From IMG/VR virus record IMGVR_UViG_3300023707_000001: a DNA stretch of 64,000 nucleotides; one strand, 5' to 3'. The stretch's first letter is position 1. Each line of letters starts with the position of its first letter. A program made the translations under genes and the position numbers. The notes beneath the pieces were generated by a model. The model was not told the origin of the DNA and ran no database searches. It worked only from the letters and a program-made list of their open reading frames with translations. Shown here piece after piece: positions 23,000-50,041 of the stretch. Source of the DNA: a virus (taxonomy: Duplodnaviria; Heunggongvirae; Uroviricota; Caudoviricetes).

Positions 23000-23527
23000 A
23001 TGCGCGTCGGTATTTTTTTCGGGTGCTTCATCCCGTTACATAAGGGCCATGAAGAAATGATTCGCTTAGCAATGAAGGAAAATGACCACCTGATTCTTGG
23101 TATATGTGGATACGATAACGACCGAGGAAAGGGGTATCTTTCATTCAGAGAACGACTAAGGTTAATGACAAAACTTTTTGGCGACAAGGAAAATGTGACG
23201 CTTGCAGTTGTGGATGATAAGAAAGTCGGGCTCAAGGGAACATTTAGCGTGAACGCCTGGAAGCTTTGGTCGGACGAATTGTTTGAGAATGCCAAATTCA
23301 ATCCGAACGACAAGTCTCACCAGTACACCTGGTATTCTGGTGAGCCGGACTATCTGGAAAAGATACAGGAACTTTACCCGACCCACGAAATAAAACATAT
23401 ACCGAGGACGTTAATTCCTATTTCGGGAACTCAGATTAGAAACAATACAACTAAGTACAGGGAAGATGTTAATCCGCTTTTTGCAGTCTATCTTGCAGAG
23501 CGGGGATTGATGGAGGAAAAATTATGA
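23000..23527 (+). CDS. HxGH nucleotidyltransferase, probable NaMN/NMN adenylyltransferase (NadR/NadM-like)
   Basis: GCFIPLHKGH and ISGTQIR motifs; lies between pncA and pncB. Confidence 0.75.
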   Translation: MRVGIFFGCFIPLHKGHEEMIRLAMKENDHLILGICGYDNDRGKGYLSFRERLRLMTKLFGDKENVTLAVVDDKKVGLKGTFSVNAWKLWSDELFENAKFNPNDKSHQYTWYSGEPDYLEKIQELYPTHEIKHIPRTLIPISGTQIRNNTTKYREDVNPLFAVYLAERGLMEEKL

Positions 23528-24741
23528 AATTCAAACAGATTATTAACTCACTTCTGGAAACCGACCTTTACAAATTCAGCATGGGGCAGGCTATCTTCCA
23601 CCAGGCCAGCGAATTTGAAACGACCTGGTCATTTAAGTGCCGTAACAAGGATGTGTTCTTCACCCCTGAAATGGTTGAAGAAATCCGCGAACAGATTCGT
23701 GCGTTCTGCAATTTGAGTTTTACAGAAGATGAACTGGATTATCTTGCCAATATCAAATGGCTGAAAAAATCCTACATCAATCACCTCCGCTTGTGGCATC
23801 CGAACTTTGACAATTTCATTATTAAAGCGGGCGGAGAAAAAGGGCTTATCCTTGAAGCAAAAGGAACGCTTCTTGATACCTCCATGTATGAAATTCCGAC
23901 TCTGGCCATTGTCAATGAGGTGTATTTCCGGTTCCGTGACGACTACGCATTGCTCGTTGAAGATTCAAAGGCACGGACAAGAGCAAAGGCAGAAAAGCTC
24001 CAGATGGGGAAATACTGGCTGCCGGTATTCTCTGAATTTGGCCTTCGCCGCCGCCTTTGCGCAGAAGCACAGGAATATGCTGTAGAAACATTCTCGAAAC
24101 TGGATTGTCACGATGTATTGCGTTCGCATTTTGTCGGTACGTCCAATGTTTATCTGGCCAAGAAATATGGTGTAACTCCTGTCGGCACGATGGCGCATGA
24201 ATGGATTATGTGCATGGGACAGGGCAATCATCTTTACAATCCGGCATATTCCAACAAGGTAGCTCTTGAAGCTTGGGTAAGAGAATATGGCGTGGATAAT
24301 GGTATCGCTCTTACTGACACGATTACTACGGACTGCTTCTTGCGTGATTTCGACAAAACACTGGCAACGCTCTTTAGCGGTGTCCGTCACGATTCTGGCG
24401 ATCCGTTTGTGTGGGGCGATAAGATGATTGACCATTACACCCGCCTTGGTATTGACCCTGCAACAAAGACCCTGCTGTTCTCAGATTCTCTTGATTTTGA
24501 GAGAGCTGATAAAATTGCGCGTTATTTCCAGGGTAAGGCAAAAGTAGCTTTTGGTATTGGTACTTATATCTCAAACGATACCTACGCAACGCCGCTAAAC
24601 ATCGTTATGAAGGTTACGGAATGCAACGGAAGCCCGGTGGCCAAAATCTCCGATACGGAAGGTAAGGGAATGTGCAAGAGTCAGGAATATGTTGACTACC
24701 TGCAGCGTTCGATTGACTGGCGTCTGAAAAACAACGATTGA
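23524..24741 (+). CDS. pncB: Nicotinate phosphoribosyltransferase
   Basis: SLLETDLYKFSMGQ, EFGLRRR, GTSNV, GTMAHEW, GVRHDSGDP, FSDSLD, FGIGT, KISDTEGK. Confidence 0.95.
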   Translation: MKFKQIINSLLETDLYKFSMGQAIFHQASEFETTWSFKCRNKDVFFTPEMVEEIREQIRAFCNLSFTEDELDYLANIKWLKKSYINHLRLWHPNFDNFIIKAGGEKGLILEAKGTLLDTSMYEIPTLAIVNEVYFRFRDDYALLVEDSKARTRAKAEKLQMGKYWLPVFSEFGLRRRLCAEAQEYAVETFSKLDCHDVLRSHFVGTSNVYLAKKYGVTPVGTMAHEWIMCMGQGNHLYNPAYSNKVALEAWVREYGVDNGIALTDTITTDCFLRDFDKTLATLFSGVRHDSGDPFVWGDKMIDHYTRLGIDPATKTLLFSDSLDFERADKIARYFQGKAKVAFGIGTYISNDTYATPLNIVMKVTECNGSPVAKISDTEGKGMCKSQEYVDYLQRSIDWRLKNND

Positions 24742-26437: not shown

Positions 26438-29400
26438 ATGAGCTTGTCTTTAGAAACCGTTTTGCCCAGCATGAAGCAGAGCTTCCCCAGCTGGTCAGAC
26501 ATTCGTAAGCGCACCGACAAATCGGTTGGCGGCGCATTGATAAAATCGTATGCCTGTGAAGCAGATTATATACAGGATGCAATTAATGAGTATCGCAAAC
26601 TGTTCTTCCTGCTTAATTACAAAGACCATGAGGAAGAGTTTGCAGACTATCTCTATATCGCAACTGTGGGTAAACAAAACGAGATAAGTGTCGTTGGTTT
26701 TCCGTGCCAGGTTACGGAAGATGATGACTTGTTCTATAACAACATGGACAAGATGGCCCTGTACAAAAATGGTTATCTGATGTTCCATGAAAATATCCTT
26801 CCGAATGGCGCTGAACAGAAAACGGTTCAGTACAAAACAGAGAACAAAAATGTGTATGAAGCAGAATTGCACAAAGAGCACATCTGGAATGCATTCGATG
26901 AGTTTGCTCTATTCGCAGGACTCACCAGATATGGAAATGAAACCAATAGTGAGCTTGCAGCACGTACCGTGCAGATATTCAAAGAATTTCCCAACCCGAC
27001 CGGTGACGGGCTGAGGAATGCTGTAAAAGACGCGATTGCTCCACACGAAAAAATCGAGGATGAAGCAATTGATATATACACGTTTGGTGATAAAAAATTC
27101 ACGCTGAGCCGTGAAGACCACAGGGCCATGTACGAAGACATGGTACAATTAAACCGAGATATTTTCCGGGCCAAGGTTTGGAACAGGGATATTTGGGAAC
27201 ATGGCTTCCAGAAAACGGATTACATTCCGCATGTTTGGGATGCCCCGATGGAAGCTGTGCAAAACGGCGTAGGATATAACGACTCCCTGCGGGCGGATTA
27301 TATTAAGCGTCTTGGCCAGAGTGAAACCACAGACATTGAAGTAAATGCGTACAAAAAAGACTTTGAACGTATTCGGCAGTATATCGGCCGCACAAATGTT
27401 GAAGCGTCCATCCAGCTCACGCTCACAAAATACACGGATGAAGTCAATCCGAAAAATGTAGAGTTTTGTGTGAGAGCTTACGATGTTAAAAAGATTGACA
27501 AGCCGGAAAACATTCATGTTCTTGGAACGCGGAAGCAGAATGGTGAAAAGCGTTACTATGTAGATGACCTCGATGTGGAAACCTATGGCGTAACCCGCGT
27601 AGAGGGCAATCACCTTGAAGAGAACGCTTCGTACAAACTGAAGTTCACACCAAAAGATACGTTTGCCGGCATGTCCATTGAAAAATGCGCACTGGTTTCC
27701 GATAGTGGCGAAAAGGATTTACGTAAAGAGTATTCGTATTACAAGATGCAGAACGGAAGCATCGTAAACCAAAATGTTGCAGCGCACGTTACTTCGACCG
27801 CTCAAATCACCATCAATCACAATGTTGAAGATTGCAGCACGGGTATTACGGTTGGCCATGGTGACTCAAAAGGCCTGTTCGGCGTCGATGTCACCGGCAT
27901 GGGAAAAGAGCTTGTCAACTACAGTGTTGCTTGCCGGCGTATTGATATAACTTCTTCAAGTTATATTGAAGGGCGCAATGGCTTTGAAATCAGTGAAGAC
28001 GGAAAATCATTCGAGAGTACCCGTCCAGATTCTCTTGGCCAAATTATCATTGGTGGCCAGGGGCGTGAAATGAGTTGTAACTCATATTCGTTCACACTGG
28101 ATAAGTCAGACATTCCTGCATTGCAGGGCGCAATTACCGTCACGGAAATCGTTGATGGGCAGGTTACGCAGATGACCTATCGCCAGCCGCAGGATATTGT
28201 GCGTGAATTCAAGAAGCGCTCGACGGTTCAGGTTATCATCCAAAAGTATGGGCAGAATCCTGTAAAAATCAAAAACATTGCCATGGCAAGCTATGACGTG
28301 AATGTTGGATTGTCTGATGGTACACCGCTTACGATGTCCGGAAAAACAATCCGCTTGCCGGAAAATGTTGACGGAAAAGTTCTGAATGTGGAAATCATTC
28401 CTTACACGGCGGCATACCCGGTAGTAGAATACCTGCATATCGGCGGCAGCCTGAAAGGCGCCAGATACGAAGTCGATTTCAACACGGACGGCCTCAAGAA
28501 CCCGAAACTGGATATCGACACGGACTGCAACATAACCTTGTATAAGAAGTCTGGCGGCAGCAGTATCCTCGTAGGCGACGAATACAAATATACAACAAAA
28601 GCACGCTTTAAGAATACGACTTCCGACCCCGGCCAGATTATTCTCGACCTGAGCGATTTTGCTTCCATCTCCAGTGCTAGTCAGAAGATAAAAGACCAGT
28701 ATAAGGGTATGAACAAGAAGTATATCGAACTTGCGCCAGGAGAAGAAATCTTCGAGATGGACATAACAGGTGAGGTTATCAGGCAGGTTACAAACAAACC
28801 AATCCTGTGGCATCTGTTTGGGGACGATACGAAGAATAAAGAATTGTATGCTACCCGAGGAACGAATGGATACATTCTGGTAAAAGACACGGAAAGCGGT
28901 GAAACGAAAAAGGTAACAATCCGATACGAGGATTTGGATGGCAGAGCAGACAGCTACCAGCTGACCGGGCTTTCACATGAACTTTCCGCAGAGTTTGTAA
29001 CAGCAAACGGTGAAATTCGTGAAACGGTAAACTCTGGTACGGGCTCAATCTTTGACCATCTTGGAATAACGTACAAACAGGCATCTGAGTATGTTGCTTA
29101 CAATACGTTCTCCATGATTCGGGAAAAGCAATCGGGAGTTGAACTGGTAAACACGTTTACGCCGGTTATGTCCATGACGGAACTGAAATACTATGTAATT
29201 GCTTCAACGAAAAATGCAAGAGAAGATAAGGTATGTTTTGAAACCTCTGGTGATAACTGGAGCCTGGGCGTAGATGAGAAGGGCATTTCCATTACGACAG
29301 TGTTGGAAACCAAAAACGCAGACTCTTGGATTATCAGTATCAATAATGTAAACAACAGGTATATCCTTGCCAACGAAGTCCCGCTGGAGGAAAGATATTT

Positions 29401-31471
29401 TATCGAGCAGGATAATATGTATCACGACCTGCGCGAATACATGGTATTTACCGAGCCGGGGCTTGTTGTCAATTACGAAATAGAGCCTGGCATCGAGGAG
29501 AACATTGTTGTAAAAGAGAAGCTCGTAAACAAGCTCAAGTTCTCAAATATCAACGACCTGAAGGTTTACCAGGGCAATGCGCTCTTGACCAGCGGGTACG
29601 AAGTGATGAAAGATGAGGGCCTTATCATATGGTCCGATGAACGGTATCTCGGCATCCCGCTGCGTATCGTTTATTCCATTAGACGGGCATCCACAGTATC
29701 TTATACAAAAGAGTATGAGGATAAACTGTATAATCTGGTAAACTTCTCCGCAGAGGCTTATAAGCTTATTGGTACAAATACTTATAAGAACTGCCCGGAT
29801 GGAGCACGATACAATCTTCGATTCGATGAAGAGCCGGATAAAATCATCACGGCATGCACGAATGCGTCGTTTAGTACATCTATCCTCAATGGCGTATTAA
29901 CCGCCGCCCGCATAACGGATGAAGATAAGATAGCGGTTCATAACGGCTATATTTATGACCAGGGGCGGGAGTATTACTACTTCAGTGATATTTTCAATGA
30001 CCGGGTAGATGCATTCAGTAACATCGAACTTCACGACGTAAGCAGGATGAATGGCGAATTGCTGTTCCATATGCGCTCCACAAACTACCTGCCGTACTCA
30101 AATATGAGGACTTCGGTTATGGCAAAGCTTTGTTCTGTAGACCTCACGAAGCGTCTGCCGAAGGGAATCAGTAAGGCTGCGCACCAAACAGCATGCGAAA
30201 GCTTTAACCTCTGGCACAATATAAATATGAAGGTTGCGCTGACAGAAAACGGCATGAATAGCTACGGTCTCAATTTCAAGTCGGCTGATAAAACAGGCGG
30301 ATATGCTGCGCTGGATATTACATCGTTTTATATCGAGGGGCATGCAATCTCGCTGTACATTGTCGGCGACTTGAAAGCAAGTATCGTTAAGGAGACGCAG
30401 GTTGATGGCCTGACCATGACGAAATCCATTTTCCTGGAGACAAAAGATGGATATGAGCTGGAGCGGGAAAAAGACCTCGCTTACGGCATCTGTGGCAAAC
30501 CTGAAAAAAATTGCAGATACTTCCTCGTGCTCTCAGGAACGAGCGGAACGATTGACGATATTGTGTCTCTTCCGTACACCGACCTGAAAGGGATTAAAGA
30601 ATCACACAGGAAGAACATTAATAAGCTGAACTTTAACATTGCCGAAAAGATGCCCGAAAAATACGAATGTGATTTGGAATTCGATATTGCGGGTGCTGCT
30701 TACAAAGACTTGAATATTCACAGCCAGACAAAAGAGATTGAGACGTCGGCAAACGTTGAATATGGTCTTACCTTGGCAGAATCCATTGACCTTGAGCAGT
30801 GTCTGATATCCAGGATGCAGCTTAAGAAGGGCACACTCATAACGACACTTGACGGCGGAAGCGCAAGAACGCCAGTATTCTTTACGCATACAAAGTCGTC
30901 CATCTATGCACTCTATGTAAAAGTGAACGACATTATTGAGGGGCAGTACAAAGGATTTACAATCAAATTGTACGGCTCAAACACGAGAAGCGGCGGATAT
31001 ACTCTGCTTGCTACGGAGGAAAATGCAAATCTGCTTTCAATACCACACAACCTCGTTCGGAATTACTACTATGTCGAAGTTATTGCGAATAAAAACAAAG
31101 TAATTCATAGCATAGATGTTTATGCAAGATACGCAGAAACGGAAGATGGCGGCATGTTGGCGCCGACAAGAATTAGTCAGGGAACATTCATTAGCAAGAT
31201 TTACGATATGGGTGAAAAAGCAAATTATATTCTGAAAGATATTTGTTACAAAACAAATAATCAGGATGAATATGTAGAGTTCTATATCAGAGGTGCTCGT
31301 GAAGGAAAAAGCAATCTGGTATTTACGCCGTGGAGAAAATATGCGGCAAATAGCGATAAGCTCAAAGAGATTCGTTATGATGACTATTCTCTGTTCCAGT
31401 TTAAAATCAATGTTAATAGCCCAACGGTTACATTGACGGTTGATAAATTTAGAATGGTGGTTGCATCTTAA
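26438..31471 (+). CDS. Large baseplate/virion structural protein (1677 aa)
   Basis: Follows baseplate J; wedge-like WNAFDEFALFAGLTRYGNETNSEL motif; beta-rich. Confidence 0.55.
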   Translation: MSLSLETVLPSMKQSFPSWSDIRKRTDKSVGGALIKSYACEADYIQDAINEYRKLFFLLNYKDHEEEFADYLYIATVGKQNEISVVGFPCQVTEDDDLFYNNMDKMALYKNGYLMFHENILPNGAEQKTVQYKTENKNVYEAELHKEHIWNAFDEFALFAGLTRYGNETNSELAARTVQIFKEFPNPTGDGLRNAVKDAIAPHEKIEDEAIDIYTFGDKKFTLSREDHRAMYEDMVQLNRDIFRAKVWNRDIWEHGFQKTDYIPHVWDAPMEAVQNGVGYNDSLRADYIKRLGQSETTDIEVNAYKKDFERIRQYIGRTNVEASIQLTLTKYTDEVNPKNVEFCVRAYDVKKIDKPENIHVLGTRKQNGEKRYYVDDLDVETYGVTRVEGNHLEENASYKLKFTPKDTFAGMSIEKCALVSDSGEKDLRKEYSYYKMQNGSIVNQNVAAHVTSTAQITINHNVEDCSTGITVGHGDSKGLFGVDVTGMGKELVNYSVACRRIDITSSSYIEGRNGFEISEDGKSFESTRPDSLGQIIIGGQGREMSCNSYSFTLDKSDIPALQGAITVTEIVDGQVTQMTYRQPQDIVREFKKRSTVQVIIQKYGQNPVKIKNIAMASYDVNVGLSDGTPLTMSGKTIRLPENVDGKVLNVEIIPYTAAYPVVEYLHIGGSLKGARYEVDFNTDGLKNPKLDIDTDCNITLYKKSGGSSILVGDEYKYTTKARFKNTTSDPGQIILDLSDFASISSASQKIKDQYKGMNKKYIELAPGEEIFEMDITGEVIRQVTNKPILWHLFGDDTKNKELYATRGTNGYILVKDTESGETKKVTIRYEDLDGRADSYQLTGLSHELSAEFVTANGEIRETVNSGTGSIFDHLGITYKQASEYVAYNTFSMIREKQSGVELVNTFTPVMSMTELKYYVIASTKNAREDKVCFETSGDNWSLGVDEKGISITTVLETKNADSWIISINNVNNRYILANEVPLEERYFIEQDNMYHDLREYMVFTEPGLVVNYEIEPGIEENIVVKEKLVNKLKFSNINDLKVYQGNALLTSGYEVMKDEGLIIWSDERYLGIPLRIVYSIRRASTVSYTKEYEDKLYNLVNFSAEAYKLIGTNTYKNCPDGARYNLRFDEEPDKIITACTNASFSTSILNGVLTAARITDEDKIAVHNGYIYDQGREYYYFSDIFNDRVDAFSNIELHDVSRMNGELLFHMRSTNYLPYSNMRTSVMAKLCSVDLTKRLPKGISKAAHQTACESFNLWHNINMKVALTENGMNSYGLNFKSADKTGGYAALDITSFYIEGHAISLYIVGDLKASIVKETQVDGLTMTKSIFLETKDGYELEREKDLAYGICGKPEKNCRYFLVLSGTSGTIDDIVSLPYTDLKGIKESHRKNINKLNFNIAEKMPEKYECDLEFDIAGAAYKDLNIHSQTKEIETSANVEYGLTLAESIDLEQCLISRMQLKKGTLITTLDGGSARTPVFFTHTKSSIYALYVKVNDIIEGQYKGFTIKLYGSNTRSGGYTLLATEENANLLSIPHNLVRNYYYVEVIANKNKVIHSIDVYARYAETEDGGMLAPTRISQGTFISKIYDMGEKANYILKDICYKTNNQDEYVEFYIRGAREGKSNLVFTPWRKYAANSDKLKEIRYDDYSLFQFKINVNSPTVTLTVDKFRMVVAS

Positions 31472-37558: not shown

Positions 37559-38638
37559 ATGCTGTTCTTGAATAATAAAACCACAATTGGTTTTAATGAC
37601 AATTATCCTTACGGGAATGGCGGAGCAAGCGTCACAGATAGGGTTATTACCGATAAGATGTTGTCTGATTTGGAGCTTCGTCTGGCGGCAGAAGGCCTTC
37701 CGGACAAGCTCAATCAAAAAACACTTGTACTTGACCCTACAACCGGGCAAATTGTAATTGGTGACGGGTCAGGAAATCCCAAAGTAATATCCTGCATAAA
37801 GGTAATTGGTACATTAGACGACCTGCCTGTAACCGGCCTTAATGACATGCTTTATGTCGCCATTTTTGAAAAAGCATTCGCTATTTGGGATAGCAGCAAC
37901 AATGCTTATGTAAAAATGGGAACCGGCGATTCGGGAAGTACCGCGCTGGATAAATCGGTTGAAACATATCCGTCGGTTGCAAATTTCCCGCTCGAAGGCG
38001 AAAAAGACAAACTGTATGTTACATATAGCGGCAAGAGCTACTTCTTTGTTGATGGAAAGTACCGCCCCTTGTTTAGTGGAGGTGTGGATGCTTACACGAA
38101 AGAGGAAGCAGACGAGCTTTTCGCAAAGGAAGAAGTTCTTGGACAAAAGGCAGACGCAGAGTCAGTTTACACAAAGAATGAAGTAGATGACCTTTTAAGC
38201 ACGGTTCAAGCTGAAAAAGGTGAGCAGGGCGAAAAGGGAGACCAAGGTGACCCGGGTAAATCTGCTTATGACATTGCTTCGGAGGCCGGATTTGACGGAA
38301 GCGAAGAAGAATGGCTGGAGTCTCTGCGTGGCGAGCAAGGTGCAGATGGTATTTCTGGACGAGATGGTGCGTCCGCTTACGAGATTGCCAAGAATAACGG
38401 CTTTACTGGGACAGAAGAGGAATGGCTCGAATCCTTAAAGTCGGATGCTGACGTTTCAGTTGTTACACCAGACGATATTGACGCACTCTTTAATGAAAGG
38501 GAAGAGCAGAAGCTGGAAGATGTTCTCTCCGTCGCTTCTCTTGAAGAGGTCGATGCCTTGTTCAAGAATAAGCCAGTCATGGAAGTAGAACCTCTGCGCA
38601 TCGCTTCCCTTGAAGAAATAGATGCTCTTTTTCAATAA
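37559..38638 (+). CDS. Collagen-like fibre protein
   Basis: G-X-Y repeats; two SAY(D/E)IA..GF.G(S/T)EEEWLESL modules; three C-terminal (D/E)(I/V)DALF repeats. Confidence 0.7.
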   Translation: MLFLNNKTTIGFNDNYPYGNGGASVTDRVITDKMLSDLELRLAAEGLPDKLNQKTLVLDPTTGQIVIGDGSGNPKVISCIKVIGTLDDLPVTGLNDMLYVAIFEKAFAIWDSSNNAYVKMGTGDSGSTALDKSVETYPSVANFPLEGEKDKLYVTYSGKSYFFVDGKYRPLFSGGVDAYTKEEADELFAKEEVLGQKADAESVYTKNEVDDLLSTVQAEKGEQGEKGDQGDPGKSAYDIASEAGFDGSEEEWLESLRGEQGADGISGRDGASAYEIAKNNGFTGTEEEWLESLKSDADVSVVTPDDIDALFNEREEQKLEDVLSVASLEEVDALFKNKPVMEVEPLRIASLEEIDALFQ

Positions 38639-38666: not shown

Positions 38667-40097
38667 ATGGATACTCGTCCAGAGGAAGTAACTGAAGAAA
38701 ATATTGATGAAAAATTAATCAACTACGCCGACCTTAGACGTTTTGGTGAAAATATAAATAGGCATTATGCCTCCGTTGGCGTCTTAAAAGCAAAGGCCAA
38801 TATCACCGAAGTGTATACCCGCAAGGAAATCGATGATAAGCTGGCTGATATTTCTGTTGGCGAAGGCGTTAAGGGTGACAAAGGTGACCCCGGAGAACAG
38901 GGCCCAAAAGGTGACCCTGGCCAAGACGGACAAAACGGCCGTGATGGTACAGATGGGAAATCCGCCTTTGAAATCGCAAAAGAGAATGGCTTTGCAGGGA
39001 GCGAAGCAGAGTGGCTGAAATCACTGCAGGGAACCCCTGGCACAAATGGAGTTTCGGGACAAGATGGTGAGTCTGCTTACGAAATTGCCGTAAGAAATGG
39101 TTTTAAGGGCACAGAAAAAGAATGGCTGGAGTCCTTAAAGGGAGAAGGCGGCACGCCTGCAGACCCCATCGATACAACAAATTTTGTACAGAAGAATGAA
39201 CTGGAAGGATATGCTACGAAGGAAGACATCCCCGATGTTACCGGACTTGCCAAGAAAAGTGACATCCCGGATGTATCCAACTTAGCAAAAAAGAGCGATA
39301 TTCCTGATGTATCAAACCTTGCTACAAAGGATGATATTCCTGACCTTACAGGCTATGCTAAAGCTGAAGATATTCCCAAGCAGAAAACATTGGCGGAGCT
39401 GGGCGGCGTAACACAGACCGGCGTTGAGGCAATCATTCAGGCAAAAGATTTTACATCCACTGACGTTGTAAGGCAAATGATTGAAGCTGCCATTGCTGAG
39501 GCCTTGAAGAATAATGGTGGCAATAGTGGCAGTGGCGAGAGCGGTAGCGGCGGTAATAGTGGCAGCGACACTCCAGAACCGGAGCCTACTCCGCAACCAT
39601 CACTGCCTCAATTTGATGAAAGCGACTACGCATGGACGCACTACTTTGTAGTTCCGGCCGGCTGTCATTTTATAACTGACCATGCCAGCACCTTCTTCGG
39701 TGACCCGCTAACACCGGAAGACCTGTTTGGTCCCAACTATGACATGAAGAATGCTACAACCGAAATTCGTGTACTTGGTACATTGAGAGATAACGAAAAC
39801 ACCGAAACGGTGGTTGATGACGCCATTAAAGGGCGCACAATCGGTTACGACTTCACCGAGTATTATAAAGAGGGCTTAAGGGTGCCGCTGGATGCTGCCG
39901 AAGGGGTAGACGTGGATGGCTTCTGTAAAGAGCTCGATAGGGTTTGCCGTTGGAACGATGGCGCCATTAGCCACGACGGTGAAGAGATAATGGAAACAAC
40001 CTTGATGACTTCCGGATGTGGACTCCTATATATCATCCGTAAGCTGAAAGATGGCAAGACGTTCCCCGAGTATACAATTGGTGAAAAACTCAAATAA
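38667..40097 (+). CDS. Collagen-like fibre protein with 12-aa tandem repeats
   Basis: G-X-Y repeats, two SA(F/Y)EIA..NGF.G.E.EWL.SL modules, (L/Y)AxKxDIPD repeats, Gly/Ser-Pro linker, distinct C-terminal domain. Confidence 0.7.
   Translation: MDTRPEEVTEENIDEKLINYADLRRFGENINRHYASVGVLKAKANITEVYTRKEIDDKLADISVGEGVKGDKGDPGEQGPKGDPGQDGQNGRDGTDGKSAFEIAKENGFAGSEAEWLKSLQGTPGTNGVSGQDGESAYEIAVRNGFKGTEKEWLESLKGEGGTPADPIDTTNFVQKNELEGYATKEDIPDVTGLAKKSDIPDVSNLAKKSDIPDVSNLATKDDIPDLTGYAKAEDIPKQKTLAELGGVTQTGVEAIIQAKDFTSTDVVRQMIEAAIAEALKNNGGNSGSGESGSGGNSGSDTPEPEPTPQPSLPQFDESDYAWTHYFVVPAGCHFITDHASTFFGDPLTPEDLFGPNYDMKNATTEIRVLGTLRDNENTETVVDDAIKGRTIGYDFTEYYKEGLRVPLDAAEGVDVDGFCKELDRVCRWNDGAISHDGEEIMETTLMTSGCGLLYIIRKLKDGKTFPEYTIGEKLK
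39210..39377 (+). repeat. Degenerate 36-bp (12-aa) coding tandem repeat, ~4.7 copies
   Basis: YATKEDIPDVTG / LAKKSDIPDVSN / LAKKSDIPDVSN / LATKDDIPDLTG / YAKAEDIP. Confidence 0.9.
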
Positions 40098-43217: not shown

Positions 43218-43847
43218 ATGAGATTACTTAGGTACGATGCAAAAAAGAAACGGTGGATACAGCTGTTTGCCGATTCTGCCTTGGATAAGTATAAAAACCT
43301 TTCGGATGTCGTTGATAAAAAAGCGGCACGAGATAATCTCGAACTGGATGAATATTATTGGAATAAAGCGGCGTTGAAAGACGGCGCCGCTGTCAATTCC
43401 ATCCATAACGTATGTGTTATCCAGGATGAGAAAGCTCAGTTTGTAACGAAGGCAGATAAAGAAAACTGGAACCAGAAGGTAGACCGGCCAATCGTAAAAT
43501 CCACTGCGGATGAAGAACTTCCCGAAATGACGGAAGGCCAGATGGTTTACAACCGCGCTACGGATACCATCAAGGTTAAGATTGACGGTAAAATTCGCGA
43601 TTTTGAAAACAACCGCGAAATCCATGGCACAGCAAATTTTGCAGGAATGGGAAATGAAGTTAAGATTGAACATCATCTGGAAACCATTCACGGCGTAAAA
43701 ATAACGCCAAAATTTGTTGGCATATCATGTGTCACCAACCCTGGAGGAATGTTAGGTGAAACATGGACGAGAAAAGACGATACGTATTTTTATGTAGGGA
43801 ATACAGGTAGTTATCAAGGGCCATTTGAATATATGGTTTACTACTAA
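43218..43847 (+). CDS. Tail-fibre-like protein
   Basis: NLSDVVDKKAARDNLEL and QFVTKADKENWNQK, both common fibre motifs. Confidence 0.6.
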   Translation: MRLLRYDAKKKRWIQLFADSALDKYKNLSDVVDKKAARDNLELDEYYWNKAALKDGAAVNSIHNVCVIQDEKAQFVTKADKENWNQKVDRPIVKSTADEELPEMTEGQMVYNRATDTIKVKIDGKIRDFENNREIHGTANFAGMGNEVKIEHHLETIHGVKITPKFVGISCVTNPGGMLGETWTRKDDTYFYVGNTGSYQGPFEYMVYY

Positions 43848-43869: not shown

Positions 43870-45144
43870 TTGAGACAACTACCAACAGCGGCAAGCTTAC
43901 TTTTAACGGAAAACTGCAACTTGCGATGCACTTATTGTTTTGAGAAACACAACAAAACAAAAATGAGCAAAGAGGTTGGACGAAAGGCAATCGACTGGCT
44001 TTCGGATAATGCTGTGAAAACAGGCCTGGATGAGTTTTCCGTTCTCCTCTTTGGGGGAGAACCGCTACTCAATATCGACACGATTGAGGAAGTGTTAGAA
44101 TACGGCGTAAAAGTCGCAGACGAAAAAGGACTCCGCTTTACGGCGTCAATGGTTACGAATGCCACAGTAATGAATGACCATATTTATAGCGTACTCCGTA
44201 AATACCGCGACATGGTTAATCTTGGCATACAGCTTTCTGTGGATGGAATTCCTGAAGTACAGGACAGATACAGATTGACGGTTGCCGGAAAAGGCTCGTG
44301 GCATATGGTTGAAAAGAATCTGCCAAGATTCAAGGAGCTTTACGATAACAACCCGGACGATAACCGCCTGTCCATTCATGGCTGCATCAATAAGGAAACA
44401 ATGCCATTCCTGTATGAGAATTACAACTTCTTCCGTAAGGAATTAGGGTTCAAGCGTATCTGGTTCCTTCCGATAGCCGAGGAAAAATGGGATGCGTCAG
44501 ATGTAAAGCTCTATCAGGAAAACAGCCAAAAAATCTTCAACGACTGTGTCGCAGATTTGCTGCAGAGCATGGACTATCAGGAAGCTCTCAATTATGCGCC
44601 GTTTGATAAGTTTGCAAATGGTCTGGAGTGTCGCCCGGACGCACCGTGCGGCGCCGGCAGAAGTTTTGTCACAATAACCGCAACGGGCGAAATTTATCCA
44701 TGCCATCAAATCTACTTCAATGACCCGGAAAAAGATACGCTGATTGGCAATGTGATGGGCGATGGAGAACTGGATGAAGACAGACGAAGAATTTTCCTTG
44801 AATACGAAGAGGAAGATATTGGATGTCAGGATTGCCCAAATACACAGTGCTACAGATGTCTTGCTACAAACTATGTAAACAACGGAGGCATTCTCTCTCA
44901 AATTAGGGGGCTGTATTGTGCCCTGTCTGGTATCGACAGATATTTCCAAGGCAAAATGTTGGAGGTTGTACGGAAATTGCGTCTGGCATCACAGGGCGAC
45001 GATGAAGTGCAGGACTGCTTGTGTAATTCCCGAAGTGCAACGTCAGTTAATGGCTGCGATATCGTAAATAACAAAGACTTGTGTCAGTCGGGAAACAATC
45101 CTAAAGCGCCGGGATGCCTCTGCGACGTAGATAGCGGATTTTAA
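43870..45144 (+). CDS. Radical SAM/SPASM-domain enzyme (peptide-maturase type) with Cys-rich tail
   Basis: CNLRCTYC, FGGEPLL, SVDG, SPASM CGAG..GEIYPCH..CQDC....CYRC..C; TTG start after GGAGGA. Confidence 0.9.
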   Translation: MRQLPTAASLLLTENCNLRCTYCFEKHNKTKMSKEVGRKAIDWLSDNAVKTGLDEFSVLLFGGEPLLNIDTIEEVLEYGVKVADEKGLRFTASMVTNATVMNDHIYSVLRKYRDMVNLGIQLSVDGIPEVQDRYRLTVAGKGSWHMVEKNLPRFKELYDNNPDDNRLSIHGCINKETMPFLYENYNFFRKELGFKRIWFLPIAEEKWDASDVKLYQENSQKIFNDCVADLLQSMDYQEALNYAPFDKFANGLECRPDAPCGAGRSFVTITATGEIYPCHQIYFNDPEKDTLIGNVMGDGELDEDRRRIFLEYEEEDIGCQDCPNTQCYRCLATNYVNNGGILSQIRGLYCALSGIDRYFQGKMLEVVRKLRLASQGDDEVQDCLCNSRSATSVNGCDIVNNKDLCQSGNNPKAPGCLCDVDSGF

Positions 45145-45171
45145 CAGAATAATGAATAAGAGGACGATAGG

Positions 45172-45957
45172 ATGGCTTTAAGAAGCTTAAAAAACACATA
45201 CAGCCGAATGGTTGATGATATAAGACAAAGCGGGCCAGCCAATAATGATTGGAAGGATTTGGCAACCTTAAAGGACCGGCTTGACAAAATGTATAAGTAT
45301 CGCAATAACGAGATAATCGATAGCGACCCCAGAAATTCAAATGATGATACGCCAGGACAGATTCATAATGTGTGTACGCAACATTATTACAAAAGCTTCA
45401 AGGACTTCCAGCAGAAAATGGGAGTGGATTACAGCCTGTCCATCGGTGATATCGACAATGCTCTCGATAGTATGCCGTATTGTACATGCAATGGCCGGTC
45501 TATGCAAGCATGCAAATGTGTGGCCCGAGATGCTGGCGATCATTGTTCGTGCAATGTAAGAGCGCCTATTGGGTGCGCTTGCGTATACCGCAACGGTGGC
45601 AAGTATGGCAGCCCGTGTGCAATAAATAGCTACAATTTTGGATGCAGCTGTGTAAGCCGGGCGGCTACTAGAGATTGTGATTGCAACGGTCGTTGCTCCT
45701 GTAATGTGGTGAATGAATACACCATGAAAACATATAGACAGAAGCTAAACGACGAAGGCATTACGGAAACCTGCCGTTGTGTATCAAGGCAGCTTGGCGA
45801 TGTATGCCTGTGTCACGCCAGAACTGTTGCAGCACAACCCCCTACTCATAGGCATACAATGGGGTGTAATACAAAGTATAATGTGCCGCAAAAATATTGT
45901 GACTGCGTACAGAGAACGTCATCAATATCGTGTGAATACCACGAAATACATTTATAA
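45172..45957 (+). CDS. Cys-rich CxCxxR-repeat protein, putative radical-SAM substrate
   Basis: Nine exact CxCxxR motifs plus CSCNVV, about 24 Cys in 261 aa, after a ~100-aa Cys-poor N-terminus; GAGGA RBS. Confidence 0.75.
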   Translation: MALRSLKNTYSRMVDDIRQSGPANNDWKDLATLKDRLDKMYKYRNNEIIDSDPRNSNDDTPGQIHNVCTQHYYKSFKDFQQKMGVDYSLSIGDIDNALDSMPYCTCNGRSMQACKCVARDAGDHCSCNVRAPIGCACVYRNGGKYGSPCAINSYNFGCSCVSRAATRDCDCNGRCSCNVVNEYTMKTYRQKLNDEGITETCRCVSRQLGDVCLCHARTVAAQPPTHRHTMGCNTKYNVPQKYCDCVQRTSSISCEYHEIHL

Positions 45958-45986
45958 GTAGTTAGTTAAGTAGTTAAGGAGTTAAT

Positions 45987-46880
45987 ATGCTGGAAAGATA
46001 CGTCATTCACGTTACCAAAGCATGCAATATGGATTGTTTTTACTGCTACGAGCAGGACAAAACAAGCAAGTATACAAAAGAGGAAGTTCTTGGCACCGTT
46101 GAAAAAATCGCCGCAAATTGCAAAGACAAAGAATTTGGTGTGGAATTTCTTGGCGGTGAGCCAATGCTTGCTTTTGATATTATCAAGGCGGTATATGAAT
46201 ATTTGGAGGAAAATTACAAGGGCCGCGTCAGGGATTACGTCATCACAACAAACGGCACAATACTGACGGATGATATGTTGGCATACCTACAGGAAAATCC
46301 TAAAATCGTATATGCTGTTAGCCTGGACGGTACGAAGTGGGCAAACCAGCTTCGCCGTTTTAAGGGCGGGGCCGGAGCATTTGAGCCGGTTGTGGCAAAC
46401 TTAAAGAAAGCAATCAACGGGCTTTCCGATGAACAGATAAGCGTACATATGGTAACGCATCCATTTAATGTCGGCAACATATTTAATAGCATTAAGTTTA
46501 TTCATAGCATGGGTGTTAAATACATCGGTGTTGGTACAGTGGAAAGTACAATGCTTATTGATGCGATGTACTGTGAAAGATTCGTTCAGGAAATGGATAA
46601 AGTAAGCCAGGCTATTGTTAGTGGTGAGCTGGCCGGGGTGGAGATAGATATTCTAAACACCGTTAAGCCTGTTGATGATGTGCGTACGTACATTAAAGAT
46701 GATACCGGCAAGGTAATCGGCGAAAGCTATGGTAGAAGCAAGGACGATATAACGTATACGAATGAATTTAACAGCGTGCGTACGGCATCGCCGATTGGGG
46801 ATGTAATTGTTTCGCTGCGCAGATGCGTTTATGAAAATCACCAGTATAGACTCGGAGGAAATAATGATAAAATCGCTTGA
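45987..46880 (+). CDS. Radical SAM enzyme without SPASM domain
   Basis: CNMDCFYC, FLGGEPML, TTNGT, VSLDG; AAGGAG RBS. Confidence 0.88.
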   Translation: MLERYVIHVTKACNMDCFYCYEQDKTSKYTKEEVLGTVEKIAANCKDKEFGVEFLGGEPMLAFDIIKAVYEYLEENYKGRVRDYVITTNGTILTDDMLAYLQENPKIVYAVSLDGTKWANQLRRFKGGAGAFEPVVANLKKAINGLSDEQISVHMVTHPFNVGNIFNSIKFIHSMGVKYIGVGTVESTMLIDAMYCERFVQEMDKVSQAIVSGELAGVEIDILNTVKPVDDVRTYIKDDTGKVIGESYGRSKDDITYTNEFNSVRTASPIGDVIVSLRRCVYENHQYRLGGNNDKIA

Positions 46881-47853
46881 ACACATCAAAGGACTTTGGG
46901 CAAAGTTAGACAAAAACGAAAAGCTGAGCATATACATCAATATCCCGTTCTGTAAATGTCAGTGCAGGTATTGCCTTTATAAAGGAGAGCCGGGCGCGGG
47001 GGACGAAGAACATCGAAAGTTTGTATACGATTACCTGATTCCGTCAATCAAAAGATTCCATGACTTATTCGATGAGCATGAAATCGAAACGATATACTTC
47101 GGTGGCGGAACACCAAATGCAATCCCCATAAAATACATTATGGATATATGCGATGCAACAGCATGCTTCAATCGAGCAAAGAATAGAATTATTGAAATGA
47201 ATCCGGCGTACTGCTCCGTTCAGGACGTAGAACTGTTAACCGATTTTGGTTTTACACTGATTACGTTCGGCGTTCAGTCGTTCTGCAAAGAAGCTCTTAA
47301 TTTCCAGCAAAGGCCATACTGCAGCGAGGATAAAATCACAAAACTTGGCAAGGCTATCCAGTCTCTTGGCGGAAAGTTCAGTCTGGACATCATGTGCTAT
47401 TTGCTAAAGTATGACAAGAGCGACCTTGAGATATTCAAACAGGATGTTGAGATTGCGAAAAGAACGAACGCGGACTTTGTAACGATATACCCGGAGCTGA
47501 ACCTAATCCTGAATGATGAACAGGCAGCAAACGATTTTGTGCAATGCGTAAAGAATGTTGACTGGAGCGGATATTGGCTGGACGATGATACTACCAATAT
47601 AGAAAAGACGCACAGATTGATAACTCGGATGGTTAAGGACAAATACAGTGAAGAAGAATTCTATGAAAGCATCCTTCCTTATTATGCGGACGACTTCCCA
47701 TACGCAACACAAAACATTGTTAGTTTTGGCGCAGGAAATGGTAAGCATGATGTAATGTCCTATGTGCCGGGAGAATTCTATTATGTAGAAGTCAACCTGG
47801 GAACCAATACACCAATATACAATATGAAATTCGAAGAAGGGGAACCGCAATAG
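46864..47853 (+). CDS. HemN-like radical SAM enzyme
   Basis: IYINIPFCKCQCRYC, TIYFGGGTPN, EMNP, FGVQSF; ATG 46864 after GGAGGA. Confidence 0.85.
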   Translation: MIKSLEHIKGLWAKLDKNEKLSIYINIPFCKCQCRYCLYKGEPGAGDEEHRKFVYDYLIPSIKRFHDLFDEHEIETIYFGGGTPNAIPIKYIMDICDATACFNRAKNRIIEMNPAYCSVQDVELLTDFGFTLITFGVQSFCKEALNFQQRPYCSEDKITKLGKAIQSLGGKFSLDIMCYLLKYDKSDLEIFKQDVEIAKRTNADFVTIYPELNLILNDEQAANDFVQCVKNVDWSGYWLDDDTTNIEKTHRLITRMVKDKYSEEEFYESILPYYADDFPYATQNIVSFGAGNGKHDVMSYVPGEFYYVEVNLGTNTPIYNMKFEEGEPQ

Positions 47854-47888: not shown

Positions 47889-48911
47889 ATGTCCAAGCCT
47901 CAGGGTGTCCATAAAGTCAGCGAAAACATTGTTCAGCTGGGAAGAGGAGTAATCTATACAGAAGAACTGGACAATATCGATATGGAAAAAGTCCCAGATG
48001 GTTCTATTTGGGTGAATGTAGACAATGGTGGTTTGGCGGTAAAGTTGAGAGGGAGCGATTCATTCACAGAGCTCCCAATCGGCCTTGCTGACGCTGATGA
48101 TGACGAAAGTCAGAAACTGCTGGAAGAGTTTGTAAAAAAGTATGCAAACGCCGATATCCAGCACAAGCACATCGAGGAAGATGTCCTAAAAAATAAAGAG
48201 AAGATACAAGAGTTAAAATCTCTGCTTGAAAAACTGCAAGAGCAAATTCACAACATAAACATATACGCCCTATACGAAAGTTTGACTGACAGGTTTACAG
48301 AGCAGGGAAACGAAATTATAACACTGCGAAGGGAAAAACTCGATAAGAAGGACCTAAAGCTCTTTGTTACAATAGACCAGATGGAACCGATTATCCAGGA
48401 AAGGACAGCGCAGTTTGCAAGCAGAAAAGAGCTTGCTGAAATAAAAACCGACTTCAACAATGTCGTAAAGACCTTTGCAACAAAAGATGAGCTGGATAAA
48501 AAGCTGTTTGAAAAAACACAGCCACTGGCTCAAGAGAAAGACGTTCAAACGTTAGGGGAGCAGTTAAAAACGCTTATTCAGGAAGTAGAGGAAATCAAGC
48601 TTGATAACCAGGAGAAAGCAAAAGAGCTAGATGAAAAGTTTGGGGATATTGACGATAAGCTTATTGAGCTCGACGCAGCAACCGGAGATAAGGTTATCAA
48701 ATCGCTTACACTGGAAGCTGGACAAACCAAGCCATGCGAAATTGACGAAGGAAAGCAATATCGCATAATGCAAGTTTATATCAAAAAGCCGAGCGAGGAC
48801 TTGTGGTCATTCGATACAGAGCAAATTGATGTTGCAGCTGATGAGAATGGGGCAGTTAATGTTACAAACAAGTCATCGAATGAACTTGATTGTTTACTGA
48901 TACTGATGTAA
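47889..48911 (+). CDS. Coiled-coil fibre-associated protein (N-terminal domain paralogous to 41221)
   Basis: QGVHKVSENIVQLGRGVI..VPDGS..VKLRG followed by a long coiled coil. Confidence 0.55.
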   Translation: MSKPQGVHKVSENIVQLGRGVIYTEELDNIDMEKVPDGSIWVNVDNGGLAVKLRGSDSFTELPIGLADADDDESQKLLEEFVKKYANADIQHKHIEEDVLKNKEKIQELKSLLEKLQEQIHNINIYALYESLTDRFTEQGNEIITLRREKLDKKDLKLFVTIDQMEPIIQERTAQFASRKELAEIKTDFNNVVKTFATKDELDKKLFEKTQPLAQEKDVQTLGEQLKTLIQEVEEIKLDNQEKAKELDEKFGDIDDKLIELDAATGDKVIKSLTLEAGQTKPCEIDEGKQYRIMQVYIKKPSEDLWSFDTEQIDVAADENGAVNVTNKSSNELDCLLILM

Positions 48912-48914
48912 TAG

Positions 48915-50000
48915 GTGATAACAATGAAATCAAAAGCTACAGCACTTCATGTTGCAGAATTGAATGAGAGAGTCTTGGATAACGCAAGAAATGTAAGACG
49001 CTGTCTCGAAATGGTTGAAGAAATAGCCATACAGATTAACGAAGCGATTGAAAGCTACCGTAATTTTAAGCGGGATAAGAAAGTTTGCATGGATGCCGTT
49101 AATCTGGAGGTAACAAACCGAGAACTCCAGTACGGAGTAATTGAAAAGCAGATGGCCGGTATCCAAAAAGCTGCCCGTGAGATGGAGGACATGCGGGAGA
49201 GCTTTGAAGAAACCAGAGCAACTGTGGTGGAGAATTCGTCAACCATCACAGATATTACGAAAAACATTGAACAGCTAAAAAACGACGTCACAAAAGAATT
49301 TGCAAAGAAGATAAGCACATCTGGCGGCACGATATATGGTGACCTGACCGTAACCGGCATGGTTAATGGCCGTGCTGAGAAAGCAAAGGAAGCGGAAAGT
49401 GTCGAGTGGGATGCTGTGCAAAACAGGCCGGAATATTATCCGCCCGCACAACATAACCATGATGACCTTTATCCTGCAATCAATGGTGAGCGGGCCGAAG
49501 GTAAATGGAATATCGATATTTCTGGTAAGGCAGATAAGGCTGGCGATGCAGACCGAGCCGATAATGCCGACCATGCAGCAGTTGCAGATAAGATTGATTG
49601 GGCAGGTATTGAGAACAAACCAGAAAATTACCCGCCGGCAGAGCATAACCACGATGCCTTGTATCCATCCATAAAAGGTGAACGTGCAGAAGGTGTCTGG
49701 AATATTGATATCGACGGTGAGGCAAAAAGGGCCAAATCCGACAGCGAAGGCAATATTATCACTGCAACCTATGTGAAAAAAACTGACATGGGGGAACTGC
49801 AGAAAGAAATCGGCAAAATTTCGACGGAGATAAAAGAATCCTTAAAGGGGACATCTGTTGAAAACGAAACGCCGGATGAAAAAATCACGCTGCGCTGTGA
49901 AGTTGAAAATGGCATGCTCACGGTTGTTCCTTATGTGAATGGGGAGCGGGCCTACATTACTTCCAGTGTTATTGCCTGTGAAGACACCAGTGAAGAATAA
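48915..50000 (+). CDS. Tail fibre protein with duplicated HNH(D)-containing repeat
   Basis: GGTIYGDLTVTG; two W..(V/I).N.PE.YPPA.HNHD.LYP.I.GERAEG.WNIDI.G.A units 64 aa apart; DSEGNIITATY motif. Confidence 0.7.
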   Translation: MITMKSKATALHVAELNERVLDNARNVRRCLEMVEEIAIQINEAIESYRNFKRDKKVCMDAVNLEVTNRELQYGVIEKQMAGIQKAAREMEDMRESFEETRATVVENSSTITDITKNIEQLKNDVTKEFAKKISTSGGTIYGDLTVTGMVNGRAEKAKEAESVEWDAVQNRPEYYPPAQHNHDDLYPAINGERAEGKWNIDISGKADKAGDADRADNADHAAVADKIDWAGIENKPENYPPAEHNHDALYPSIKGERAEGVWNIDIDGEAKRAKSDSEGNIITATYVKKTDMGELQKEIGKISTEIKESLKGTSVENETPDEKITLRCEVENGMLTVVPYVNGERAYITSSVIACEDTSEE

Positions 50001-50013
50001 TAAAGAAAAACAT

Positions 50014-50041
50014 AACGCGGTCTTGTTTAGACCGCCGTTTG
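50014..50041 (+). terminator. Possible weak terminator hairpin
   Basis: GCGGTCT-tgttt-AGACCGC with AACG/CGTT extension; poor U tract. Confidence 0.4.

Follow-up and report, generated by a model that had tools for sequence, protein, structure and literature searches.

A radical-SAM module around a CxCxxR-repeat protein beside tail-tip genes in phages and prophages of anaerobes

Why should a phage encode three radical S-adenosylmethionine (radical-SAM) enzymes around a cysteine-rich repeat protein in the middle of its tail-fibre genes? The question is raised by positions 43870 to 47853 of a 64,000-nucleotide stretch of Caudoviricetes DNA (the window in what follows), which is part of IMG/VR virus record IMGVR_UViG_3300023707_000001. 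This block holds four genes on the plus strand. They encode rSAM1, a radical-SAM/SPASM enzyme of the PapB/CteB type (43870..45144; 424 aa); a 261-aa protein with CxCxxR repeats (45172..45957), hereafter the CxC protein, which is the presumed substrate; rSAM2, a radical-SAM enzyme without a SPASM domain (45987..46880; 297 aa); and rSAM3, a HemN-like (class-C-like) radical-SAM enzyme (46864..47853; 329 aa). An initial annotation, made from the sequence alone, had placed the four genes here, and this was confirmed, all three enzymes exceeding the Pfam cut-off for Radical_SAM. The preceding gene (43218..43847, plus strand) encodes a short fibre-like protein of 209 aa whose C-terminal ~80 residues (~43605-43844) form a conserved beta-sandwich, here called the foot domain.

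Four of these parts, namely the upstream tail protein with its C-terminal foot domain, rSAM1, the CxC protein and rSAM2, constitute a core module. Next to genes of the tail tip, it recurs in some twenty further phages and prophages whose hosts are anaerobes. Our favoured reading is that the module serves to cross-link a fibre-associated protein enzymatically, with thioethers as the probable links, and we give this reading as a whole an even chance. Its parts carry different weight. The pairing of the radical-SAM enzymes with the CxC protein as enzymes and substrate is very likely, association of the CxC protein with the virion is probable, and thioethers as the chemistry involved are slightly favoured.

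The CxCxxR-repeat family and its genomic company

The CxC protein of the window contains 24 cysteines, 20 of which lie in ten CxC motifs. The ten motifs reported initially are thus present, nine of them with the form CxCxxR and one reading CSCNVV. When residues 101-261 were shuffled in 20,000 trials, CxCxxR occurred 0.25 times on average and four times at most. A tandem-repeat artefact at the DNA level was rejected, as the coding DNA is not a tandem repeat. No match to the protein was found in Pfam, PHROG or NCBIfam. An exhaustive profile search delineated a family of 33 clusters at 50% identity, the members of which carry 10-37 CxCxxR(T) units about 10-11 residues apart behind a conserved N-terminal domain. 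In family alignments the Cys pairs and most of the Arg residues are invariant and the residues in between are variable. Motif statistics were compiled from 584 CxC motifs in 38 family members. CxC motifs contain 85-88% of all Cys residues and show a modal spacing of 10-11 residues, Arg occupies position +5 in 64-90% of the motifs, position +3 is Asn, Val or Gln, and Thr is found at +6 in half of the prophage-clade units. Conservation of an acidic residue was detected at none of the repeat positions.

In an AlphaFold2 (AF2) model of the 261-aa protein, the N-domain (residues 1-105) is helical with a predicted local distance difference test (pLDDT) score of 77-95, and the Cys-repeat region (residues 104-254) stays at a pLDDT of about 30. 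A repeat region that is not modelled next to an N-domain that folds would fit folding that needs cross-links or partners. A fold search with the N-domain returned nothing above Z 4.3 and the ESM Atlas no usable match. No RiPP recognition element (RRE; RiPP, a peptide made on the ribosome and modified after translation) was detected in the N-terminal region, and an N-terminal hydrophobic stretch is not visible in the family. The earlier description of this region as leader-like is therefore doubtful, since residues 1-105 represent a conserved, confidently folding domain lacking a detectable RRE. Relatives of the CxC protein reach 464-612 aa and up to 37 units, and some include further domains, such as a Cys-free insert of ~150 aa in P0033 and a Cys-poor C-terminal domain of ~340 aa in P0024. 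The extra domains of the long relatives gave no match in Pfam or PHROG, nor did the C-terminal domain of P0024 match a PDB sequence.

The genomic company of the family was read in 12 loci by means of neighbourhoods or genome scans (the window, L001, P0017, L007, P0030 (L008/L009), L010, L011, L012, L013, L014, L017 and L018). The CxC protein adjoins an rSAM2-type gene in all 12 and, on every contig that extends far enough in the upstream direction, an rSAM1-type gene as well, the upstream gene of L007 being cut by the contig end. All readable relatives are situated within tail-tip or fibre genes. The jumbo-type locus L001 (48% identity) agrees with the window in all five genes and in their order, and the P0017 locus contains all five as well. 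More remote members of the family belong to Clostridia prophages. In those of Tissierella (L011) and of a metagenome-assembled genome (MAG) of the Peptostreptococcaceae (L010), genes for a tape measure, sheath initiator, Baseplate_J, (Mu Gp48) and a short protein with a tail-collar fibre N-domain are followed by rSAM1, the CxC gene and rSAM2; holin and amidase genes come after rSAM2 in L011, and two open reading frames (ORFs) without a Pfam match in L010. This order is shared by the P0030 locus, Desulfitobacterium chlororespirans (L012) and the MAG L017, and in Clostridium sp. LBM24168 (L013) it is rSAM1, rSAM2, CxC. In PBSX/Mu-like prophages the module thus lies after Baseplate_J, Mu Gp48 and a protein with the Phage_tail_fib N-domain, and before holin and lysin. 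In Vallitalea okinawensis (L014) the cassette stands behind a 1022-aa YomG/Prophage_tail protein of an SPbeta-like siphovirus and includes a CxC protein of 464 aa, and in the T4-like jumbo phage L018 it stands behind proteins with an Mtd_N domain. Jumbo, T4-like, PBSX/Mu-like myovirus and SPbeta-like siphovirus tails are therefore all represented. The identified hosts are without exception anaerobic Firmicutes, with the cultured D. chlororespirans, V. okinawensis and Clostridium sp. LBM24168 among the carriers. Between the jumbo phage and the prophages, identity amounts to 45% for rSAM1, 49% for rSAM2 and about 30% for the CxC protein; enzymes more conserved than their substrate would be expected if the repeat protein were the adaptive part. 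As a separate observation, the D. chlororespirans locus has a 62-aa ferredoxin-like (Fer4) gene between its sheath and tube genes (L012:183-371), a possible electron donor for radical-SAM enzymes.

A scan of IMG/VR with the rSAM1 alignment yielded 41 loci, which were scored by script; orthologues were taken as those with at least 36% identity and enough flanking sequence (n=11). A CxC-rich ORF is present in all 11 orthologue loci, with up to 37 CxC units, and 10 of them have at least five CxCxxR motifs. An rSAM2 orthologue accompanies it in 10 and the foot domain in nine, directly upstream in eight. One of the 11, L033 (2-3812), is a rearranged, multi-substrate version of the module, with three tandem CxCxxR-repeat paralogues (400, 329 and 536 aa) upstream of rSAM1 and rSAM2 and the foot domain downstream. 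Among 25 loci with distant SPASM enzymes only (at most 29% identity), neither a CxCxxR ORF nor a foot domain was found (0/25 each). The survey of neighbourhoods that had been proposed at the outset thus showed co-occurrence of CxCxxR proteins with orthologues of rSAM1 and rSAM2 at every readable relative. Several loci with distant SPASM enzymes, together with three at 33-34% identity, adjoin other CxC-rich ORFs without the Arg, which suggests a wider set of phage radical-SAM enzymes paired with Cys-repeat proteins. Distant SPASM enzymes (23-34% identity) beside such Arg-less ORFs with 17-28 CxC motifs were observed at L031/L032:9204-10310, L038:9100-9885, L040:10505-11113 and L045:9022-9990.

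Other searches were negative. The CxC alignment, when used to scan IMG/VR, retrieved nothing, and at the DNA level no GenBank phage matched the block. Among GenBank phage isolates, tblastn with the prophage-clade CxC protein P0161 gave no match, a result in which the BLAST low-complexity filter may hide such a repeat, and an rSAM1 search returned relatives of about 30% identity only and no orthologue.

The radical-SAM enzymes and the foot domain

rSAM1 matches Pfam Radical_SAM with an E-value of 3.6e-13; its SPASM match of 18.4 bits lies below the cut-off of 21.5. Its best NCBIfam matches are all maturases that make thioethers in Cys-containing peptides (PapB, SCIFF, QhpD, CcpM, CXXX and CefB). 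The PapB profile (NF047865) is matched over positions 4-326 of 330 (205.2 bits, E 1.5e-60; cut-off of 340 not reached), the SCIFF maturase profile (TIGR03974, CteB) with 146 bits (cut-off 425 not reached; alignment from profile position 98), the third-best, QhpD, with 138 bits (2.7e-40; cut-off 453) and the CXXX-repeat maturase profile (TIGR04115) with 109.7 bits (cut-off 350 not reached). In the PDB the best match is CteB (5wgg, 2.9e-32). This alignment begins at CteB residue 98, and the N-terminal RRE of CteB is therefore missing from rSAM1. The enzyme possesses the CX3CX2C motif (Cys16/20/23) and seven SPASM cysteines for two auxiliary clusters (260, 278, 319, 322, 327, 330 and 350), and of these ten residues only Cys319 is not invariant in 32 orthologues.

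Across the same 32 orthologues the C-terminal tail shows a motif with the consensus GNNPxNPDCLCDxR, the two Cys of which are at least 90% conserved. In the window, the tail reads CLCDVD at 416-421 (Cys416/418), preceded by CLCNSR at 383-388, which is common to L001. Through this CxC motif of its own, the enzyme is tied to the substrate by a feature other than gene order; the motif could act as a pseudo-substrate, be modified by the enzyme itself or belong to a shared ligand set. Orthologues of rSAM1 are numerous in metagenomes (at least 120 clusters with an E-value of 1e-79 or lower, the best 120 being listed, among 340 relatives with an E-value below 1e-30) and rare in genomes, where they were seen in one of 399 other Clostridia species sampled, a figure to be read as a floor. 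One orthologue, P0143 (734 aa), bears intein domains.

rSAM2 matches Pfam Radical_SAM with 8.9e-18, and its nearest NCBIfam profiles are the PapB core and HxsB, both below cut-off. The match to the CteB core in the PDB (4.1e-16) covers residues 5-153 only. The protein has just six Cys, three of them in CX3CX2C, and none for auxiliary clusters. It is 49% identical to the orthologue in the L010 prophage. In the T4-like jumbo phage L018 (10345-12267) an intein that contains a LAGLIDADG endonuclease interrupts the rSAM2 orthologue.

rSAM3 gave a Radical_SAM match of 3.8e-08. Its NCBIfam matches to STM4012, HemW, ChuW and HemN range from 1e-16 to 1e-21 and are all below cut-off (STM4012 77 bits; HemW, TIGR00539, 70 bits versus 205), and PDB matches comprise HemN (1olt, 1.6e-08) and the methyltransferase NocN (6.7e-05). 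It is thus a relative, not a member, of the HemN, HemW and class C methyltransferase families. The gene occurs in four of about 20 loci, which all resemble the jumbo phage of the window, that is in L001, the P0017 locus, L020 and probably L007, where the assignment is based on position, the 351-aa gene found there being cut by the contig end. It is absent from the prophage loci. rSAM3 is hence an accessory of the jumbo-like clade and stands outside the core module.

The 209-aa protein of the window is 45% identical to the gene product at the same position in L001, and its last ~70-80 residues reappear, at nearly all related loci, as the C-terminal end of the protein encoded ahead of rSAM1. Carriers include a short fibre protein in L010, L011 and L013, a protein of 105-168 aa in L012, L009 and L017, one of 210 aa in L018 and, in L014, the 1022-aa Tal-like YomG/Prophage_tail protein. 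The foot domain is thus fused to differing upstream tail proteins. A Phage_tail_fib N-domain was detected by Pfam on the carriers in L011 (209 bits) and L010 (37 bits) and is on record for L013; the 209-aa protein itself has no Pfam match, and shares its C-terminal domain with prophage fibre proteins at an E-value of 9e-16. The foot domain matched neither Pfam nor any PDB sequence. Residues 130-209 were modelled by AF2 as a beta-sandwich with pLDDT 80-95, and the top fold matches of this model are to extreme C-terminal domains of phage fibres and tailspikes. They are headed by a Klebsiella phage depolymerase (Z 7.8) and the R2 pyocin fibre (6cu2; Z 7.6, root mean square deviation 2.1, 73 aligned residues), followed by the Pam1 tailspike (Z 7.5), AP22 gp53 (Z 6.5) and H-type lectins (Z 5.8-6.1). 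As a lead from modelling, the foot domain may be akin to fibre-tip or H-type-lectin-like domains.

Possible readings: stapled fibre protein, released peptide or metal-binding element

Two arguments speak for the enzyme-substrate relation: two radical-SAM enzymes are strictly co-inherited with the repeat protein, and rSAM1 is kin to maturases that form thioethers in Cys peptides. A fibre-associated product, rather than a released peptide, is favoured by the placement in the fibre slot of four tail architectures, by the upstream tail protein's dedicated foot domain, by the size of the products (up to 612 aa) with their variable repeat number and embedded Cys-free domains, and by the lack of exporters. 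The proposed course of events is as follows. During late gene expression in an anaerobic host, rSAM1 would abstract hydrogen and join Cys thiols to carbons of nearby residues, so that each unit of about ten residues would become a small thioether ring, as made by QhpD in the QhpC subunit and by PapB and CteB in peptides. A further type of link or modification would come from rSAM2, and in the jumbo-like clade the HemN-like rSAM3 would introduce a methyl or methylene group. This would yield a stiff rod or knot, insensitive to redox conditions, which would remain a protein and be carried at the tip of the fibre, its N-domain probably docking to the foot domain. Such a design would make sense in reducing anoxic habitats, where thioethers should withstand conditions under which disulfides would open.

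Among known systems, PapB/PapA (freyrasin) and CteB/CteA (SCIFF, thermocellin) come closest, in that an enzyme with CX3CX2C and a full set of SPASM Cys residues is encoded beside a multi-site Cys-repeat substrate. Here, however, the RRE is missing, the scores fall far under the family cut-offs, and the substrate is a protein of 170-610 aa with a folded N-domain instead of a peptide of 40-60 aa. Unlike the short PapA-type precursor with its Cys-X3-Asp/Glu sites, the protein of the window has 261 aa and CxCxxR(T) motifs with no conserved Asp/Glu. In addition, a second, SPASM-less radical-SAM enzyme is obligatory, and the whole belongs to a phage tail module lacking an exporter. The maturation of the quinohemoprotein amine dehydrogenase gamma-subunit (QhpD/QhpC) is a precedent for SPASM-made thioethers in a protein subunit. 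There, too, a SPASM enzyme places several intra-protein Cys thioethers in a subunit that stays in its complex; QhpC is, however, a small enzyme subunit with Cys-Asp/Glu links, whereas the pair described here has another motif and belongs to a virion tail module. The CXXX-repeat and Cys-every-fifth (CefB) systems of NCBIfam likewise combine a SPASM maturase with a protein of periodic Cys residues, but the repeat here is CxCxxR(T) with a period of ~10-11, and the N-domain and foot-domain partner are specific to the CxC family. From fibre biology, two likenesses can be drawn. HxH motifs hold iron in the needle-like tip of T4 gp37, a distal fibre element which likewise has a regularly spaced two-residue ligand motif, and the Tfa products of Mu and P2 are assembly proteins, encoded just downstream of the fibre gene, that bind the fibre tip and stay on it. 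No enzymes are involved in either case, and neither has a sequence or fold relation to the CxC module.

The enzymes are of RiPP-maturase type and a conserved N-terminal region precedes the repeats, and both properties would also suit a long multi-core precursor whose N-domain is cut off as a leader and whose modified core is freed at lysis as a bacteriocin, signal or anti-defence peptide. The cassette would then be cargo at the junction of tail and lysis genes, which is a known site for such genes, and a Pfam Peptidase_C39_2 protein, above cut-off, does follow rSAM2 in L014. We nevertheless consider a released peptide unlikely. Such a peptidase is found in only one of about 20 loci and a transporter in none, the N-domain is a folded domain of 70-105 aa, and the products would have 150-500 residues with embedded globular domains. 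The jumbo-phage cassette lies deep within structural genes, and cargo would not need a dedicated domain on the upstream tail protein, which co-occurs in myovirus, siphovirus and jumbo backbones. The concentration of 85-88% of all Cys in CxC pairs at a regular spacing of 10-11 residues also raises the prospect that metal ions or Fe-S centres are held by the pairs along a (trimeric) fibre. The radical-SAM enzymes would then have a different target, such as the foot domain, a cofactor or some other tail protein, or would only help to load the metal. The failure of AF2 to fold the repeat region alone, the conserved CxC in the flexible tail of rSAM1, which could share a metal with the substrate, and the iron-holding HxH motifs of T4 gp37 all agree with this. 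However, the nearly invariant Arg three residues past the second Cys is no metal ligand, and metal loading requires none of the two or three dedicated, strictly co-inherited radical-SAM enzymes, whose nearest relatives all modify Cys-rich peptides; we regard metal or cluster binding in place of cross-linking as quite unlikely.

Very unlikely, in our estimate, is a different radical chemistry on the same substrate, for instance an anSME-like oxidation of Cys that yields formylglycine or dehydro forms, or Cys/Arg bridges of C-C, C-N or methylene type. rSAM1 does match anSME (TIGR03942, 3.7e-23, 82 bits, cut-off of 349 not reached; PDB 4k36/4k37), an Arg at fixed distance follows the Cys as in the sulfatase motif, and a HemN-like C1-transferase is present. 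The thioether-maturase match is, however, far stronger (205 versus 82 bits). Moreover, the sulfatase motif C/S-x-P/A-x-R has its Arg at +4 and a Pro/Ala, whereas here Arg stands at +3 and +5 from the two Cys and a Pro/Ala position is lacking, so that identity of CxCxxR with the sulfatase motif was rejected.

Several observations weigh against cross-linking of a fibre-associated protein. rSAM1 scores far under every curated NCBIfam cut-off. The repeats offer no conserved acidic or otherwise obvious acceptor fitting the Cys-X3-Asp/Glu sites of PapB, and the Cys-to-Thr spacing differs from that of the Cys-Thr link made by CteB. The conserved partner residue is Arg, for which we know of no thioether precedent. 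The paired cysteines could equally bind metals. The foot-domain fold match is middling (Z below 8) and could reflect a common beta-sandwich. The prophage slot between tail fibre and lysis genes is a common site of cargo genes, one relative (L014) has a C39-like peptidase next door, and none of the isolated phages in INPHARED carries the CxC family. The idea of a RiPP-like maturation acting on a virion component, with which the initial annotation had ended, is supported in part, namely by the co-occurrence, by the kind of enzyme (thioether maturase) and by large relatives with globular inserts; its inclusion of the HemN-like enzyme does not hold for the core module.

Setting of the cassette and significance

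The IMG/VR record that contains the window has a length of 108 kb, with a completeness of 47% as estimated by CheckV. An identical Cys protein is also encoded on a 340-kb contig, and the virus is therefore a jumbo phage. Radical_SAM genes other than these three were not detected in the whole record. All large ORFs of the window are on the plus strand. From the 43218 gene through rSAM1, the CxC gene, rSAM2 and rSAM3 to the next gene, the spacing is 22, 27 and 29 nt, a 17-nt overlap and 35 nt, and rSAM1 starts with a TTG codon 7 nt after GGAGG. A strong terminator or promoter consensus was not found inside the block 43870-47853, and the first clean hairpin past the cassette lies at 50017-50035, in agreement with the tight spacing without evident internal signals noted at first. 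Two collagen-repeat fibre-like proteins are encoded upstream in the same co-directional block (37559-38638 and 38667-40097, plus strand; PHROG tail-fibre/collagen-like matches of 1e-14 to 1e-27). Downstream, two plus-strand genes for proteins of 340 and then 361 aa fill 47889..50035 including the hairpin, and the 361-aa protein (48915-50000) has weak tail-fibre PHROG matches. A tail-fibre setting, as first proposed, thus follows from these collagen-like and weak fibre matches and mainly from the homology of the upstream gene to prophage tail-fibre proteins.

In the window, Pfam matched neither a peptidase nor a transporter among the adjacent ORFs, so that the initial remark on their lack holds for this locus. 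It does not hold for the family as a whole, since a Peptidase_C39_2-like protein follows rSAM2 in L014 (11731-12354, 26.1 bits) and a Peptidase_U32-like protein follows rSAM3 in L001 (12881-13819, 27.5 bits), both above cut-off and without counterpart in the window. The 340-aa downstream protein was considered as a counterpart of the latter and rejected, being unrelated to it. Elsewhere on the plus strand the window has three giant ORFs (61-7707, 2548 aa; 7770-16493, 2907 aa; 26438-31471, 1677 aa), a 422-aa protein with an HNH-endonuclease PHROG match of 2.8e-61 (21127-22395) and, near the latter, a nicotinamide phosphoribosyltransferase-like gene (23524-24741).

In a full-text search of the literature, a description of radical-SAM enzymes in phage tail-fibre modules was not found. 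The enzymes belong to a known superfamily, and what is new is the substrate family together with the docking domain and the biological target. A wider proposal, which we put forward tentatively, is that a protein in which each CxCxxR unit is stapled by dedicated radical-SAM enzymes forms part of the host-recognition apparatus in phages of anaerobes. RiPP chemistry would here be used for a virion part, thioethers would replace disulfides, and a portable module with its docking foot would plug into myovirus, siphovirus and jumbo tails. Since the cassette is present in bacteria that are in culture, the question lends itself to direct testing. Confirmation would provide an example of a viral structural or host-binding protein cross-linked after translation by radical-SAM enzymes, none being found described in the literature searched, and would carry RiPP-type enzymology beyond secreted peptides into the assembly of virions. 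CxCxxR(T) would be added as a new substrate motif, for which the acceptor residue might be new as well, and a portable module of the fibre tip would be of interest to the study of host range. The stabilisation of extracellular phage parts in anoxic, reducing habitats would likewise be accounted for.

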